Shown piece by piece: positions 5,175 through 15,655 of a stretch of DNA of 21,707 nucleotides. Within the stretch, counting starts at the first letter, position 1. Every line of letters starts with the position of its first letter. The notes beneath the pieces are model-generated. The model was not told the origin of the DNA. It saw only the letters and a list, made by a program, of their open reading frames with translations, and searched no databases. Source of the stretch: a virus (taxonomy: Duplodnaviria; Heunggongvirae; Uroviricota; Caudoviricetes); the IMG/VR virus record IMGVR_UViG_2529292922_000023, one strand, 5' to 3'. Both the position numbers and the translations under genes were made by a program.

Positions 5175-5296
5175 AGCAACGCCTCCGCCAGTAACGGATT
5201 GCGTAGTTCTTATATTGGGAAGGGGAAAAAAGAAGGCCGCAGCGTAACTATCACTAATAAATTCAGGACAGCCAGTGGCTACGGCTCAGTTTGGGT

Positions 5297-5341
5297 TGTG
5301 GCGGCCGGAATCGAACCGGCTTCCATCGGTGCGCTGCCGAT
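5297..5341 (-). other. tRNA-like 3' fragment (T-arm plus anticodon-arm-like hairpin), not a complete tRNA
   Basis: Minus strand has a canonical T-arm GCCGG-TTCGATT-CCGGC (5304..5320) preceded by a perfect 5-bp stem / 7-nt loop hairpin ATCGG-CAGCGCA-CCGAT (5325..5341); no matching 5' acceptor strand or D-arm found and no CCA. Confidence 0.35.
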
Positions 5342-5489
5342 TGCAGTACGCGCGGCGGTCAGCTATATGACTAGTATTTTCACTATCGCCTATCTGCTAG
5401 CTCGCCATTGAGCTTCACCACAACGATAAGAGCACTGCGCGGCACCTTTCACCAATTCCGCGAGGTCTGCGGGTTCAATGCTCTTACCT

Positions 5490-5526
5490 GTTGTGCAGAA
5501 AAAAAACCACACGGCAGCGAGTTTAA
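5490..5526 (-). terminator. Intrinsic terminator on the late (minus) strand, tR'-equivalent position upstream of S
   Basis: Minus-strand RNA forms CCACAC-AGC...GCU-(GCC)-GUGUGG hairpin followed by U8 (forward A8 at 5490..5497); the flanking CTGCACAACAGGTAAGAGCATTGA matches what I recall of the lambda tR' region. Confidence 0.5.
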
Positions 5527-9330: not shown

Positions 9331-10989
9331 TTACTGACTCAAACTGTTTATATTTTTCTGGAGTTGTTGCTTTGCTTGCATGATGCGCCAAGCCTCAGTG
9401 CCTATTGGCATCTCGCTTCGCTCACCTCGTTCCTGAGACAGAGGAATCGTTGCCTGCAATTTTTCTATAGTTCTCTGCGTCCGCTGACGGCCTTTGGCAA
9501 ACCGAATCAGCTTGTGTTTGATGTAGTTACTTACTTCTGGGCTTATTTCCATCGGGAAACTGCTCAACCCATCAGGCCATTCACCGAATTTCTCCCTGAA
9601 AGTGTGAGCACACCATCCATCACTGACTGGACGCCCCAGCGAAGCACGCTGGCGCTGATAAAATTTGATCTGACTCCACCAGGACTGTTTCTCTGCCTTC
9701 GTCGACTGATGCTGATTTTTACCCAGCTTATTAAGTTTGCGGCTAGTGTCAGTATCAACGTCTTCACCTCGCAGCGGCTTGTGTCCACATTTCGGGCAAA
9801 CATAGACGCCAGCTGGCTTCATGTAGTGGCATTGAGGGCATTCATGTGGCAGTTTTTCGGCCCGTTCCTCAACTGCGCGGCGCGCGCTTTCCTCCATGCC
9901 ATCAGACTTACCGGGAAGATCGTCGTACTCGATTGAATCCGGATAACCCAAACGGTGCACGGTGCCGCTGTGATCGAAGATAAGGCAGGACGCTTTACCC
10001 GGTGCGGTGCGCAGCCCACGCCCGAGTGCCTGCAACCAGCGAATTTCGCTTTTTGTTGGCCTGGCGTAGATGATGCAACGAACGTCACTATCGAATCCGG
10101 CTACCAGAACGCCCACACTAACGATGATTTTCGTTGCACCGGTTTCAAAGCGGTGAATGATGGTCTGGCGCTCATCTACCGGAGTGTCGGCGGTCATTAC
10201 CTCAGCGTTAACACCCGCCAAGTTAAACTGGATTGTCAGATAATTGGCGTGAGCTACGTTGACGCAGAAAGCGATGGTAGGTAGATCCCGACCATTCTCC
10301 AGCCAGTTCTGTACGATGTCGCCCACCAGCGTAGAGCCGCACATGATTTCAGCCAGCTGTGTTTCGTTGTAATCGCGGCCGTACTCAAGCGAAGATGTGG
10401 TTTTAACACCTTTCAGATCCGGCTTAGTTGGCGCGTAAAATTCGTATTTACTCAGATCGCCACGCTGGATTAACTCGCCGATGGTGGTCGGCTTAATCAG
10501 TCGGTCATAGTATTTGCCCAGGAACGGAGAAAACGGAGTACCCGACAGGCCAATCACCTTTACGCCTTTGCCGCGCAGACGTTCGATATCCTTCAGGATG
10601 CGTTTTTTACGCAGGTGCGCTTCGTCGATAATCAGCAGATCGATATTTTCAGGAAAAACACGACGAATAAGCGTGTCAGCGCTGGCAATCTGAATTTTCC
10701 GGTCCGGATCGTAGTTCGGGTGATCCGCCCAGATATAACCGATTTCATCTCCAGGTAAACCATACTGCACGAACCGATTAGCCGTCTGACCAATCAGGAT
10801 GGTGTACGGAACACAGAACAGAACACGCATACCACGGCTGACAAAACCAGCAACTATGAAGGCTGCCAGACCCGTTTTACCGCTACCTGTTGGCGAGTAA
10901 ACCATGAAGGTGTCGTTTGCCTTCCAGTCACGGCGCAACATGTTTAGCGCTCGCTCCTGTGCAAAATTCGGCGTGATTGTCAGCTGCAT
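9331..10989 (-). CDS. Superfamily 2 DEAD/DEAH-box helicase (replication module)
   Basis: Walker A SPTGSGKTG, DEAH box (LIIDEAH), motif III-like SGTP, arginine finger region QALGRGLR; C-terminal Cys4 cluster (CPQC...CPKCG). Confidence 0.85.
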   Translation of the reverse strand: MQLTITPNFAQERALNMLRRDWKANDTFMVYSPTGSGKTGLAAFIVAGFVSRGMRVLFCVPYTILIGQTANRFVQYGLPGDEIGYIWADHPNYDPDRKIQIASADTLIRRVFPENIDLLIIDEAHLRKKRILKDIERLRGKGVKVIGLSGTPFSPFLGKYYDRLIKPTTIGELIQRGDLSKYEFYAPTKPDLKGVKTTSSLEYGRDYNETQLAEIMCGSTLVGDIVQNWLENGRDLPTIAFCVNVAHANYLTIQFNLAGVNAEVMTADTPVDERQTIIHRFETGATKIIVSVGVLVAGFDSDVRCIIYARPTKSEIRWLQALGRGLRTAPGKASCLIFDHSGTVHRLGYPDSIEYDDLPGKSDGMEESARRAVEERAEKLPHECPQCHYMKPAGVYVCPKCGHKPLRGEDVDTDTSRKLNKLGKNQHQSTKAEKQSWWSQIKFYQRQRASLGRPVSDGWCAHTFREKFGEWPDGLSSFPMEISPEVSNYIKHKLIRFAKGRQRTQRTIEKLQATIPLSQERGERSEMPIGTEAWRIMQAKQQLQKNINSLSQ

Positions 10990-11675: not shown

Positions 11676-13980
<2,305 letters not shown>

Positions 13981-13983
13981 TCA

Positions 13984-14256
13984 TCATTCGTTTTTCATAA
14001 CTGCCGCATTTGTGGCTGTGTGACTTCTACGTAACAAATCAGGGATTGCATCTTCAGGATGGGGATAAAGATCTGGTCTTAACCCATGAGGAGTAACTTT
14101 CCATTCCACAACTTCACATACACGCAAGACGAAACGAGCAGGAATTGTTCTTTTTGAAAACCATTGGTTCACAGCTTGCGGCGTAACGCCTAGATTTCGC
14201 GCTATGGCATTTTGTGCAATTAGCTCACGAAGTGCGTCGTAATCATTTCCTTTCAT
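13984..14256 (-). CDS. cro: Cro-like HTH regulator
   Basis: 90 aa, divergent from the cI-like gene across a 134-bp operator region; HTH segment (RNLGVTPQAVNQWFSKRTIP). Confidence 0.65.
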   Translation of the reverse strand: MKGNDYDALRELIAQNAIARNLGVTPQAVNQWFSKRTIPARFVLRVCEVVEWKVTPHGLRPDLYPHPEDAIPDLLRRSHTATNAAVMKNE

Positions 14257-14390
14257 CGCAACCCACCAATCTAAACTTTATAAATTCAAGATTACATCAA
14301 GTTTAAATTAACATGCAAGTCCACAAAAGATCGAATACACTAAAATCAAGTAAAAATTTATCGAAACCAAGTAACCAGCAAGGATTAACA
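14257..14390. promoter_or_regulatory. OR-like divergent promoter/operator region between cro and cI
   Basis: Candidate pR on the minus strand: TTGCAT (fwd 14313..14318), 16-bp spacer, TGTAAT (fwd 14291..14296); ATCAAGT motif copies at 14296..14302 and inside the 13-mer AAATCAAGTAAAA at 14343..14355, which recurs downstream of cI. Confidence 0.5.
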
Positions 14391-15080
14391 ATGAAAAACT
14401 TAAAGAGCACTGAAAATCGAATTACAAAGCTGCTACAGGAGAAAGGCTGGAGCCAAGCAGAGCTGGCCCGAAAATTAGGTGTCAGCGCACAGTCCGTACA
14501 GTACTGGACAACAGGAAAAACATTTCCAAGGGGAAACCGGCTTGCCCAGTTATCCGAAATAAGTGGTTATCCGCAATCGTGGTTTTTAGGAGAAATCACG
14601 TCACGGCAGTTCTCTTCAAAGGAAAAACATCAAGCAAGAACTGACAGTGTGGTCTTTAACGTGCTCGATGTTGAGTTTAGTTGCGGCGATGGAACACATG
14701 TCCGTGGGGACTTTATCGATGTAGTTCGCTCAATCGAGCTTGATCCTGAATATGCCCGTCGCCTTGTTGGCAATAGAGCATTTCAAAACATAGAGATTGG
14801 TAACGCAAGAGGAGATAGTATGGCTCCAACAATAGCCCCAGGAGATCTTCTTTTTCTCGATAAAACAGTGAATTACTTTGATGGTGATGGCATTTATGCT
14901 TTTTGCTTTGATGGTGAATGCTACGTCAAAAGATTACAAAAGATAGGAAGTAAAATCATGGTGTTATCTGATAACCCAAATTACCAATCCTGGAGCATTG
15001 AAAAAGATGCTCTTGAGCTGCTTTATATCCAATCGAAGGTAATCTCATCTGTTCCATTCAATATAAATAGATTTGGTTAA
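14391..15080 (+). CDS. cI: CI-like repressor (N-terminal HTH, C-terminal S24 LexA-type peptidase domain)
   Basis: HTH (GWSQAELARKLGVSAQSVQYW) plus autocleavage domain with GDSMAPTI (Ser) and KRL (Lys); AGGA RBS before ATG 14391; the ORF-track start 14313 adds an unlikely 26-aa extension. Confidence 0.85.
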   Translation: MKNLKSTENRITKLLQEKGWSQAELARKLGVSAQSVQYWTTGKTFPRGNRLAQLSEISGYPQSWFLGEITSRQFSSKEKHQARTDSVVFNVLDVEFSCGDGTHVRGDFIDVVRSIELDPEYARRLVGNRAFQNIEIGNARGDSMAPTIAPGDLLFLDKTVNYFDGDGIYAFCFDGECYVKRLQKIGSKIMVLSDNPNYQSWSIEKDALELLYIQSKVISSVPFNINRFG

Positions 15081-15098
15081 TTATTGATTATTAAAGAA

Positions 15099-15226
15099 AA
15101 ATTTACAAATCAAGTAAAAGAGACGCAGAAATCAATTTTTTCTTGACAACTCCATCAATCAAGATCTAACATCACACCATCAATTTTGACTTGATTTATT
15201 GTTAATTTTAAATTGATGGTGATTCA
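15099..15226 (+). promoter_or_regulatory. OL/pL-like promoter-operator region downstream of cI
   Basis: Consensus -35 TTGACA (15143..15148) with TAACAT -10 (15167..15172, 18-bp spacer); second candidate TTGACT (15186..15191), 17 bp, TAAATT (15209..15214); operator 13-mer AAATCAAGTAAAA at 15107..15119 and reverse copy ACTTGAT at 15189..15195. Confidence 0.5.
15175..15221. repeat. Perfect 12-bp inverted repeat CACCATCAATTT / AAATTGATGGTG
   Basis: Arms at 15175..15186 and 15210..15221, 23-bp spacer, spanning the second candidate promoter and ending 5 bp before the ATG at 15227. Confidence 0.7.
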
Positions 15227-15655
15227 ATGAAAGATCTGACAACCGCTGAGATATCGAACTTAAACCACTTCGAAAAAGAATCCTTTGCATTAAATATTGC
15301 AAATCTGGTAGGTGCTGCTCGTACTTTCCATTTAATTGATGGTGATCGCTCTAAAGAATTGGGGTTTGAAGTCATGGAGTTTGTTCATGAATACGCCCTG
15401 TCTGCTACTTATCCATTACATAATCACATAATCAACAAACAACCAAATAAAATCCGCACCCAACGCGAAGCCTGCGGCTTAACAACCGCCGAACTCGCCA
15501 GGCTGCTCGATCTCGATGAAGAAATTATCATCCAGTGGGAAAGCGGAGAGTACGAACCAACCATCAGCATGCTTATCCCTCTGGCTAATGTTCTTGGCTG
15601 TGATCCAATGTTGTTATTGACTGATGCTTATAAACAAAATCAGGAGGAAGCATAA
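15227..15655 (+). CDS. HTH (XRE-type, C-terminal) regulator, HigA/Aca-like architecture
   Basis: 142 aa; C-terminal HTH (GLTTAELARLLDLDEEIIIQWESGEYEPTISMLIPLANVLG) with about 80-aa unknown N-terminal domain; first gene after the IR/promoter. Confidence 0.65.
   Translation: MKDLTTAEISNLNHFEKESFALNIANLVGAARTFHLIDGDRSKELGFEVMEFVHEYALSATYPLHNHIINKQPNKIRTQREACGLTTAELARLLDLDEEIIIQWESGEYEPTISMLIPLANVLGCDPMLLLTDAYKQNQEEA

Follow-up and report, generated by a model that had tools for sequence, protein, structure and literature searches.

Predicted 17-bp dyad operators on both sides of cI in a phi467-like (Stx2f-phage-type) immunity region

Phage lambda has divergent cI and cro genes, a repressor that joins a helix-turn-helix (HTH) domain to an S24 self-cleaving domain, and 17-bp operators of imperfect dyad symmetry around an odd central base. 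Its operators lie three to each side of cI over pR, pRM and pL, and one of them abuts the −35 of the maintenance promoter. The number of operators varies among Stx phages: 933W has three CI operators in OR and two in OL, and H-19B has four in OR (Tyler et al., 2004; Shi & Friedman, 2001, as cited in PMC8065619). The region described here, part of a 21,707-nt stretch of viral DNA (hereafter the window), resembles lambda in each of the respects listed above and is a lambda-type immunity switch of the ordinary kind, namely the CI/Cro switch of an immunity type that phi467 shares with several Stx2a/2d phages. As in 933W and H-19B, operator number is variable, with 3+3 predicted sites in the window and 3+2 in distant relatives, but both the repressor and the operator sequence differ from those of 933W and H-19B.

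The departures from lambda begin with the operator itself, since the consensus here, ATCAAGTTnAACTTGAT, is unrelated to that of lambda, TATCACCGnCGGTGATA. Measured from start to start, neighbouring operators are 31 and 49 bp apart in OR and 48 and 22 bp apart in OL, distances that relatives keep to within 1–2 bp; in lambda the interval is 23–24 bp. Only the interval from OL-2 to OL-3 is thus lambda-like, and because both OR intervals and the 48-bp OL interval are not, pairwise cooperativity in the style of lambda cannot simply be assumed. Further features set the region apart from lambda: pR and pRM have predicted −35 hexamers that occupy the same positions on opposite strands, a leader that includes a Shine-Dalgarno sequence precedes cI, about 0.9 kb without rex genes separates OR from OL, and the first gene of pL encodes an HTH protein, not N. 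The 434 repressor (PDB 2OR1, 1PER, 1R69) belongs to the same HTH_3 fold class, and its half-site core, ACAAG, is superficially similar to the TCAAG seen here. However, 434 operators span 14 bp (ACAA-N6-TTGT), in contrast to 17 bp with a central base pair, and the recognition helix is TQQSIEQL in 434 but SAQSVQYW here; because operator span and recognition helix both differ, the specificity is not that of 434 immunity.

The features on which the following argument relies are collected in Table 1. The start of cI is ATG 14391 and not the 14313 start of a longer open reading frame. CI is 100% identical to the phi467 protein, falls in PHROG 4 (CI-like repressor) and matches Pfam HTH_3 (7.1e-9, residues 13–57) and Peptidase_S24 (8.3e-17, residues 138–208), both above the curated cut-offs. 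Its nearest solved structure is the N-terminal domain of the 434 repressor (E 8e-4, residues 9–68), and UmuD and LexA match residues 138–213 in the C-terminal domain. The protein shows the motifs GDSMAPT (Ser) and YVKRL (Lys), and upstream of the S24 domain it has FSCGDG, with a Cys-Gly as in UmuD that may be a candidate for the RecA-stimulated self-cleavage site (Ala-Gly or Cys-Gly) expected in the linker. The cro-like gene, divergent from cI across a 134-bp intergenic region, matches Pfam YdaS_toxin (5.9e-13) and P22_Cro (6.9e-5) as well as PHROG 35 (transcriptional repressor), and the helix PQAVNQWF is present in all related loci. The first gene of the predicted pL operon stands outside the conserved module, being missing 3′ of cI in the operator-bearing lineages L007, L008, L085 and L092. 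Its 142-aa HTH product was considered as the binding factor and rejected, because L007, L085 and L092 keep the operators without the gene.

Table 1. Genes, predicted operators and predicted promoters of the immunity region (positions are those of the window)
Feature	Coordinates	Strand	Sequence	Mismatches to consensus	PWM rank	Remarks
cro-like gene	13984..14256	-				90 aa; YdaS/P22_Cro-type HTH; first gene of predicted pR operon
OR-a, predicted operator	14265..14281		ACCAATCTAAACTTTAT	4	7
Predicted pR	14291..14318	-	TTGCAT, 16-nt spacer, TGTAAT			-35 rc 14313-14318; -10 rc 14291-14296
OR-b, predicted operator	14296..14312		ATCAAGTTTAAATTAAC	3	2
pRM -10 candidates (two, overlapping; inferred only)	14336..14346	+	TACACT; TAAAAT			14336-41; 14341-46
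OR-c, predicted operator	14345..14361		ATCAAGTAAAAATTTAT	3	3
cI-like repressor gene	14391..15080	+				229 aa; N-terminal HTH and C-terminal S24 self-cleaving peptidase domain
Second 13-mer	15107..15119	+	ATCAAGT + A run			most likely an orphan left half-site
OL-1, predicted operator	15131..15147		ATCAATTTTTTCTTGAC	4	1
Predicted pL	15143..15172	+	TTGACA, 18-nt spacer, TAACAT			10/12 matches
OL-2, predicted operator	15179..15195		ATCAATTTTGACTTGAT	2		perfect ATCAA-N7-TTGAT
OL-3, predicted operator	15201..15217		GTTAATTTTAAATTGAT	4	6
First gene of predicted pL operon	15227..15655	+				142 aa; C-terminal HTH; PHROG family labelled 'CII-like regulator'

The original prediction held that a 13-mer shared by the two sides of cI represents CI operator half-sites. 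The exact repeat, AAATCAAGTAAAA, does occur at 14343–14355 and 15107–15119 on the + strand, a copy with one mismatch lies at 15185–15197 on the − strand, and the shorter copies ATCAAGT at 14296–14302 and ACTTGAT at 15189–15195 are likewise where they were reported. Chance recurrence had been judged very unlikely, and this judgement stands: when the two intergenic regions were subjected to mononucleotide shuffling, an exact shared word of at least 13 bases in either orientation arose in 4 of 3000 shuffles (about 0.0013), a result less extreme than a naive 4^-13 because both regions are 69–75% A+T. ATCAAKT occurs 16 times in the window, compared with 8.2 expected, and half of these copies (8/16) fall between 14296 and 15340. 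The ATCAAGT core behaves as a half-site, but the 13-mer is not the unit. It is one half-site together with its A-rich flank, and OR-c accounts for the copy at 14343; of the four positions originally cited, three (14296, 14343 and 15189) fall within predicted full operators. We dropped the 13-mer as the unit, as relatives show a 17-bp palindrome and the second copy is unconserved.

We propose that the functional unit is most likely the 17-bp dyad ATCAAGTTnAACTTGAT, with the half-site A-T-C-A-A-G/T-T-T, acting as a predicted CI operator. A scan of the whole window for further motif copies, a check that had been suggested at the outset, returned seven sites with at most four mismatches, six of which lie in the two intergenic regions adjoining cI, 280 bp in all; one equally good site is inside the helicase gene (10217–10233). 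In local dinucleotide shuffles (5000 trials), the observed number of such sites was reached in 0/5000 for OR (134 bp) and in a fraction of 0.0002 for OL (146 bp). A PWM trained on sites of other lineages only places the six at ranks 1–4, 6 and 7 among 21,691 positions (score gap 14.5 to 10.5), a ranking that is not fully independent because the training set includes some sites that equal window sites or stand at homologous positions. A set of 87 loci (341 kb) contains 507 sites with four mismatches or fewer, and 441 of them are within 160 bp of cI. The six window sites carry 2–4 mismatches of 16, mostly 3–4, with OR-a and OL-3 weak. Across lineages the half-sites change little or not at all, while divergence is seen in the operator centres and in the stretches that separate the sites.

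Between cro and cI, OR-b is nearly invariant in every lineage. It fills the spacer of a conserved pR candidate, as had been anticipated for the half-site at 14296, and it abuts the −35 region common to pR and pRM. The promoter scan missed pR because its −35 matches only 3/6, but L007 and L085 keep it as TTGCAT-16-TATTAT, and the columns of ATGCAAG do not vary in alignment A3. Counting against these promoters are the G at position 2 of the window's pR −10, TGTAAT, and the poor pRM hexamers. The pRM −10 candidates correspond to columns TA.A.T and TAAAAT, which are invariant in alignment A3, and in L002 the scan finds GTTACA-16-TAAAAT at the homologous place. OR-c includes most of the first 13-mer and, lying over the −10 and start of pRM, is a candidate for autorepression. 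Across lineages its ATCAAG and TTTAY are invariant and its six central bases variable. OR-a lies just 3′ of where pR is predicted to start, over the ribosome-binding region of cro, and its positional homologues are much better sites (ATCAAGTTAAACTTTAT in L095, ATAAAGTATAACTTGAT in L085 and ATCAAGTTAAAATTGAC in L092).

Downstream of cI, OL-1 overlaps the pL −35, and OL-2 is at about +1 of pL, with the ACTTGAT at 15189–15195 as its right half. The homologue of OL-1 is ATCAAGTTTAACTTGAC in L007, L008, L085-91, L092 and L095; that of OL-2 is the perfect palindrome ATCAAGTTTAACTTGAT in L007, L008, L085-91 and L095, and ATCAAGTTAAACTTGAT in L092. OL-3 is present only in E. coli lineages; the L002 type has TTCAATTTAAAATTGTT at this place, and L007, L085 and L095 have no site. 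The pL homologue in L002 reads TTGACA-17-TAATAT, and TTGAC and a TAnnnT hexamer are kept in all lineages. A second leftward promoter had been proposed on the + strand (TTGACT-17-TAAATT, 15186–15214). We set it aside in favour of TTGACA-18-TAACAT, which is conserved across lineages: it needs G15188, which is missing in most close relatives, and its mRNA would be nearly leaderless and would have no Shine-Dalgarno sequence. The placement originally likened to lambda OR/OL is real, with predicted operators on both sides of cI; the gene layout is also as first described, but OL-1, OL-3 and OR-a had been overlooked.

Comparison with the immunity regions of related prophages, likewise suggested at the outset, gives the same half-site in all lineages that share the recognition helix (S/T)AQSVQYW or STQTVVYW, whose repressors are 77–100% identical. 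Stx2a phages of the L002 type share both the recognition helix and the operators with phi467. The relatives at 77–83% amino acid identity, with the helix (S/T)AQSVQYW (STQTVVYW in L095), have the perfect palindrome after cI and, 47 bp upstream of it, the OL-1 homologue over a TTGAC −35. In Fels-1 and Klebsiella phage 1 LV-2017 the repressors are only 41% identical and have a different helix; no ATCAAG sites were found in their cI loci, which have their own palindromes on each side of cI. In this comparison, operator sequence tracks repressor specificity.

We consider it likely that the region is a phi467-like (Stx2f-phage-type) immunity switch in which a CI dimer occupies 17-bp dyad operators flanking cI. 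The analysis shows the sites, how far they exceed chance, how they are conserved and how they covary with the recognition helix; protein binding, promoter starts and roles in activation and autorepression are inferred. The LexA-like, self-cleaving CI would bind as a dimer to the 17-bp dyads. OR-a and OR-b, covering the pR start and spacer, would turn off cro and the early-right operon; OR-b could also stimulate the cI promoter like lambda OR2, because it abuts the −35 region of this divergent promoter. Occupation of OR-c, over the −10 and start of the cI promoter, would lead to autorepression at high CI. On the other side, OL-1 would cover the pL −35 and OL-2 the pL start, with OL-3 following by 22 bp. 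The Cro-like protein probably uses the same sites as CI.

The exact copy of the 13-mer at 15107 probably has no comparable place in this switch. The 17-mer at 15109–15125 has 7/16 mismatches to the consensus, lacks the right half and scores −7.8 (rank 362). Its ATCAA core is mutated in L019 (ACCCAAG) and L021 (ACTCAAG), 2 of the 7 distinct sequences of its own clade, a clade in which OL-1, OL-2 and OL-3 keep their cores intact; in the L002, L007, L085 and L095 lineages a cI terminator stands in its place. With mutations among its close relatives and a terminator at its position in sister clades, this copy is probably no operator, contrary to the original prediction, and we regard it as most likely an orphan half-site that is non-functional or at best auxiliary. 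It is possible but unlikely that the 13-mer itself is recognised and both exact copies work, with 15107 serving as the outermost OL site through cooperativity with OL-1. The improbability of a 13/13 identity speaks for this reading, as does the distance of 22 bp from the start of the 15109 half-site to OL-1, equal to that from OL-2 to OL-3; the L005/L006 lineage, too, has a half-site, AAATCAAGT, upstream of OL-1. That half-site, however, is at another offset, 9 bp and not 22 bp, and what distant relatives conserve is the 17-bp palindrome, not the asymmetric 13-mer.

The left arm also has a perfect 12-bp inverted repeat (15175–86 and 15210–21; 5′ arm CACCAUCAAUUU) made up of the outer halves of OL-2 and OL-3 plus CACC and GGTG. 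This raises the doubtful alternative, to which we give still less weight than to a working 13-mer, of an additional role in RNA, in which a hairpin in the pL transcript would mask the ribosome-binding site of the gene at 15227. The predicted hairpin (−17.5 kcal/mol, z −3.4) is matched in stability by 0/200 shuffles, the inverted repeat is found only in lineages with the downstream HTH gene, and a third complementary copy is present at 15334–44. Yet most of the complementarity arises from the palindromic operators alone, the stem is interrupted in relatives (a mismatch in the L002 type, a bulge in the L005 type), and, the pL start being a predicted one, the 5′ arm may lie outside the transcript. 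A hairpin with covariation was rejected, as no compensatory changes in the stem were seen among relatives, and the RNA role is kept only as a minor rival to CI operators. In the phi467 clade, an A+T-rich segment with the orphan half-site replaces the post-cI terminator of all sister lineages. That the whole left arm has been rewired, with cI read-through into the pL operon, CI roadblocks at the orphan site, OL-1, OL-2 and OL-3, and operator DNA doubling as a translational RNA switch for the CII-like regulator, is a more speculative suggestion that we think very unlikely.

A reading in which only the Cro-like protein or another regulator uses these sites, CI acting elsewhere, is more improbable again. 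Every relative conserves both CI and Cro, so the comparison cannot by itself tell which of the two reads the sites; the Cro-like helix is as conserved as that of CI, and covariation does not separate them. In every characterised CI/Cro module, among them lambda, 434, P22 and 933W, however, the repressor binds dyad sites that flank its own gene and lie over pR and pL, as is well established (summarised in PMC8065619). The two cI-flanking regions contain no further repeated dyad motif, and the downstream HTH gene, the other candidate reader, is missing in lineages that keep the sites. Least probable of all, and strongly disfavoured, is that the repeats have no protein-binding role and are a chance product or a by-product of A+T-rich promoter DNA (TTGAC hexamers, A tracts): the regions are 25–31% G+C, TTGAC lies within OL-1 and OL-2, and the loose pattern ATCAA-N7-TTGAT with at most two mismatches is not enriched window-wide (20 against 15.5 expected), which leaves the full consensus and the local tests as the informative ones, but composition-matched local shuffles almost never reach the observed site numbers, the perfect 8+1+8 palindrome recurs in independent lineages, half-sites are kept where centres vary, and repressors with another helix have other palindromes.

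The immunity type to which we assign these CI operators is common to the Stx2f phage phi467, several Stx2a/Stx2d-converting phages, and ECOR, Klebsiella and Pseudocitrobacter prophages. In the searchable literature on phi467, the operator sequences and Stx2f immunity, we found no description of the sites and no binding or transcription data for this type, and no operator study was found for phi467, PhiR49_2 or the Stx2a/2d phages of the LC5678xx series. What is new is an operator map for this immunity type, consisting of a consensus, six predicted sites and three predicted promoters; it leaves the understanding of how CI/Cro switches work unchanged. Because repressor–operator strength sets spontaneous induction, and hence Shiga-toxin output, and defines heteroimmune phages, the map should be useful for annotation and induction studies.

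Several extra half-sites, at 14285 (TTCAAGA), 14314 (TGCAAGT), 14366 (ACCAAGT), 15155/15159 (CCATCAATCAAGA) and 15324–40, make poor full sites (PWM ranks 38 to 11459) and were left out of the operator set. The intergenic ones are specific to particular lineages, and the one at 15324–40 is inside the 15227 gene.

The exact 13-mer AAATCAAGTAAAA, on which the original prediction was built, is present on the + strand at 14343–14355 and 15107–15119, and the ATCAAGT and ACTTGAT copies that it placed at 14296–14302 and 15189–15195 are likewise there; a copy with one mismatch lies on the − strand at 15185–15197. When the two intergenic regions (69–75% A+T) were shuffled 3000 times, 4 trials gave a shared word of at least 13 bases; the repeat is therefore real and unlikely to be of chance origin. 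The ideas of a half-site and of an OR/OL-like placement hold. The 13-mer as the unit, the list of sites, and the second 13-mer as an operator do not: we propose instead a 17-bp dyad with six intergenic sites, and an orphan at 15107.

The gene layout around cI is as originally described, with a cro-like gene, the repressor gene, and a further HTH gene downstream. A longer ORF from 14313 was rejected as the cI start in favor of the ATG with its AAGGA ribosome-binding site. HTH_3 and Peptidase_S24 domains were recognized in the repressor, which falls in PHROG CI-like repressor families; among solved structures, its nearest relatives are the 434 repressor for the N-terminal domain (E 8e-4) and UmuD/LexA for the C-terminal domain. 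These assignments suggest a standard self-cleaving CI-type protein. CI proteins of this type (88% identity) are also encoded by PhiR49_2 and by several Stx2a- and Stx2d-converting phages. Escherichia phage phi467 (LN997803.1), which has been described as Stx2f-converting and from an O26:H11 strain (PMC7366253), matches the region at 99.9% identity, as does a prophage in E. coli 2015C-4136CT1.

Comparison with the immunity regions of 93 related loci (L-numbers), plus three phage records added later, showed that the half-sites are conserved and that a 17-bp palindrome recurs in distant lineages. The recognition helix (S/T)AQSVQYW is kept in all relatives at 77–100% amino-acid identity, except for STQTVVYW in Klebsiella phage ST16-OXA48phi5.3. 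In the distant lineages (L007, L008, and L092, of Pseudocitrobacter type; L085–L091; L095), the perfect palindrome ATCAAGTTTAACTTGAT, or its variant ATCAAGTTAAACTTGAT in L092, lies downstream of cI, and ATCAAGTTTAACTTGAC lies 47 bp upstream of it, overlapping a TTGAC −35 hexamer. These palindromes argue that ATCAAGT is one half of a 17-bp dyad. A scan of the whole window with the consensus ATCAAGTTnAACTTGAT found seven sites with at most four mismatches, six of them in the two intergenic regions beside cI. For each region, the observed number of such sites was compared with dinucleotide shuffles of that region: it was reached in 0 of 5000 for OR and in a fraction of 0.0002 for OL. With a PWM trained on sites from other lineages only, the six rank 1–4, 6, and 7 among all window positions, followed by a clear drop in score. 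Of 507 sites with at most four mismatches in 87 loci (341 kb), 441 fall within 160 bp of cI.

Genes, predicted operators, and predicted promoters of the immunity region (window positions)
Feature	Position	Strand	Detail
cro-like HTH gene	13984–14256	−	ORF, 90 aa
Repressor (cI-like) gene	14391–15080	+	229 aa; ATG at 14391 preceded by AAGGA
HTH gene downstream of cI	15227–15655	+	ORF, 142 aa
OR-a, predicted operator	14265–14281		4 mismatches to consensus
OR-b, predicted operator	14296–14312		3 mismatches to consensus
OR-c, predicted operator	14345–14361		3 mismatches to consensus
OL-1, predicted operator	15131–15147		4 mismatches to consensus
OL-2, predicted operator	15179–15195		2 mismatches to consensus
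OL-3, predicted operator	15201–15217		4 mismatches to consensus
pR, predicted (early right)	14318 down to 14291	−	TTGCAT-16-TGTAAT
pRM, inferred (cI maintenance)	14336–14346	+	−10 candidates TACACT and TAAAAT
pL, predicted	15143–15172	+	TTGACA-18-TAACAT; conserved in every lineage

The seventh site, GCCAAGTTAAACTGGAT at 10217–10233 (three mismatches, PWM rank 5), lies inside a helicase gene (9331–10989, −); we estimate a chance expectation of ~0.08 such sites per window. Another operator-like site, ATCCAGTCTAAAGTGAT (four mismatches), lies within the cI coding sequence of L002-type relatives, accounts for 53 of the 55 sites counted inside cI across the 87 loci, and is absent from the window's own cI.

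As originally proposed, OR-b sits in the spacer of candidate pR, which it fills; L007 and L085 keep this promoter in the form TTGCAT-16-TATTAT. OR-a would lie directly downstream of the pR start, OR-c would overlap the pRM −10 candidates, and OR-b would abut the −35 region of pRM, where the opposite strand carries the −35 of pR. OL-1 would cover the −35 of pL, and OL-2 its start. The likeness to lambda is one of regulatory logic: sites in OR are spaced by 31 and 49 bp and those in OL by 48 and 22 bp, versus 23–24 bp in lambda, and these distances are constant within 1–2 bp among relatives. An imperfect 26-bp palindrome, AATCTAAACTTTATAA / TTATAAATTCAAGATT, at 14268–14293, covers the predicted start region of pR between OR-a and OR-b. 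It shares bases with OR-a and may be no more than a by-product of adjacent half-site-like sequences.

In upstream alignments, the blocks ATCAAG..T.AATTAACATGCAAG (OR-b and −35) and AAAATCAAG-N6-TTTAY (OR-c) are invariant, and divergence falls in operator centers and between sites; downstream, OL-1 and OL-2 keep invariant ATCAA and TTGAY ends around variable centers. OR-a is weak in the window, and L095, L085, and L092 have a near-perfect site at its position. The negative controls were two cI homologues with 41% identity and a different recognition helix, from Fels-1 and Klebsiella phage 1 LV-2017. They have no ATCAAG sites and are flanked on both sides by palindromes of their own, TATGT...ACATA and TTGCG...CGCAA, respectively; operator sequence thus tracks the immunity module. 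The 142-aa HTH protein was rejected as the binding factor because its gene is missing from lineages that retain the operators. The Cro-like protein is conserved alongside CI and probably uses the predicted sites too. We conclude that the region is an ordinary CI/Cro switch of uncharacterized specificity, for which we infer CI binding, promoter starts, and regulatory roles. Our literature search found no published account of these sequences or of phi467-type immunity operators; among other Stx phages, 933W and H-19B have mapped operators (summarized in PMC8065619).

The 15107–15119 copy, by contrast with its original reading as an operator site, scores poorly: the 17-mer from 15109 has seven mismatches (PWM score −7.8, rank 362). 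Its core is mutated to ACCCAAG in L019 and ACTCAAG in L021, where CI is almost unchanged (100% identical in L019; one substitution among the first 75 residues in L021) and the OL-1, OL-2, and OL-3 cores are unaltered. In the L002, L007, L085, and L095 lineages, the cI terminator AACGGGCTTTGCCCGTTTTT occupies its position. Its 22-bp spacing from OL-1 leaves cooperative filling as an unlikely possibility; in L005/L006 a half-site lies 9 bp rather than 22 bp from OL-1. We conclude that this copy is an orphan half-site. The phi467 clade has no intrinsic terminator after cI (15081–15130), so transcription from the cI promoter may run on into the pL operon.

Within OL-2, base 15188 is G in the window, L014, and L017 and A in L015, L016, and L018–L021; with the G, the palindrome is weaker, at two mismatches instead of one, and the −35-like TTGACT of the originally predicted second leftward promoter arises. 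A perfect 12-bp inverted repeat, CACCATCAATTT / AAATTGATGGTG (15175–15186 / 15210–15221), is built from the outer half of each of OL-2 and OL-3, together with CACC and GGTG. The modeled RNA hairpin (−17.5 kcal/mol, z −3.4) would sequester GGTGAT, the ribosome-binding site for the 15227 gene. Relatives' stems are interrupted, with no compensatory changes seen; a third complementary copy lies within that gene (15334–15344).

This prophage, a relative of phi467, is stx-negative. A 2.5-kb segment of L094, the Stx2f prophage of E. coli 2015C-4136CT1, with stxB2f, stxA2f, tRNA-Gly, and tRNA-Thr, is replaced at 5213–5499 by ~290 bp of unrelated sequence; outside it the two are 93–99.6% identical. An IS21-family element (11829–13782; istA 12674–13696, −; istB 11895–12677, −; TGTCA termini), flanked by the 5-bp target duplication CCTTG (11824–11828 and 13783–13787), interrupts the pR operon's second gene, and ORF 13723–13971 is a truncated copy of phi467's 294-nt gene. 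Through polarity, the element probably shuts down the early-right operon, and the prophage may therefore be defective.
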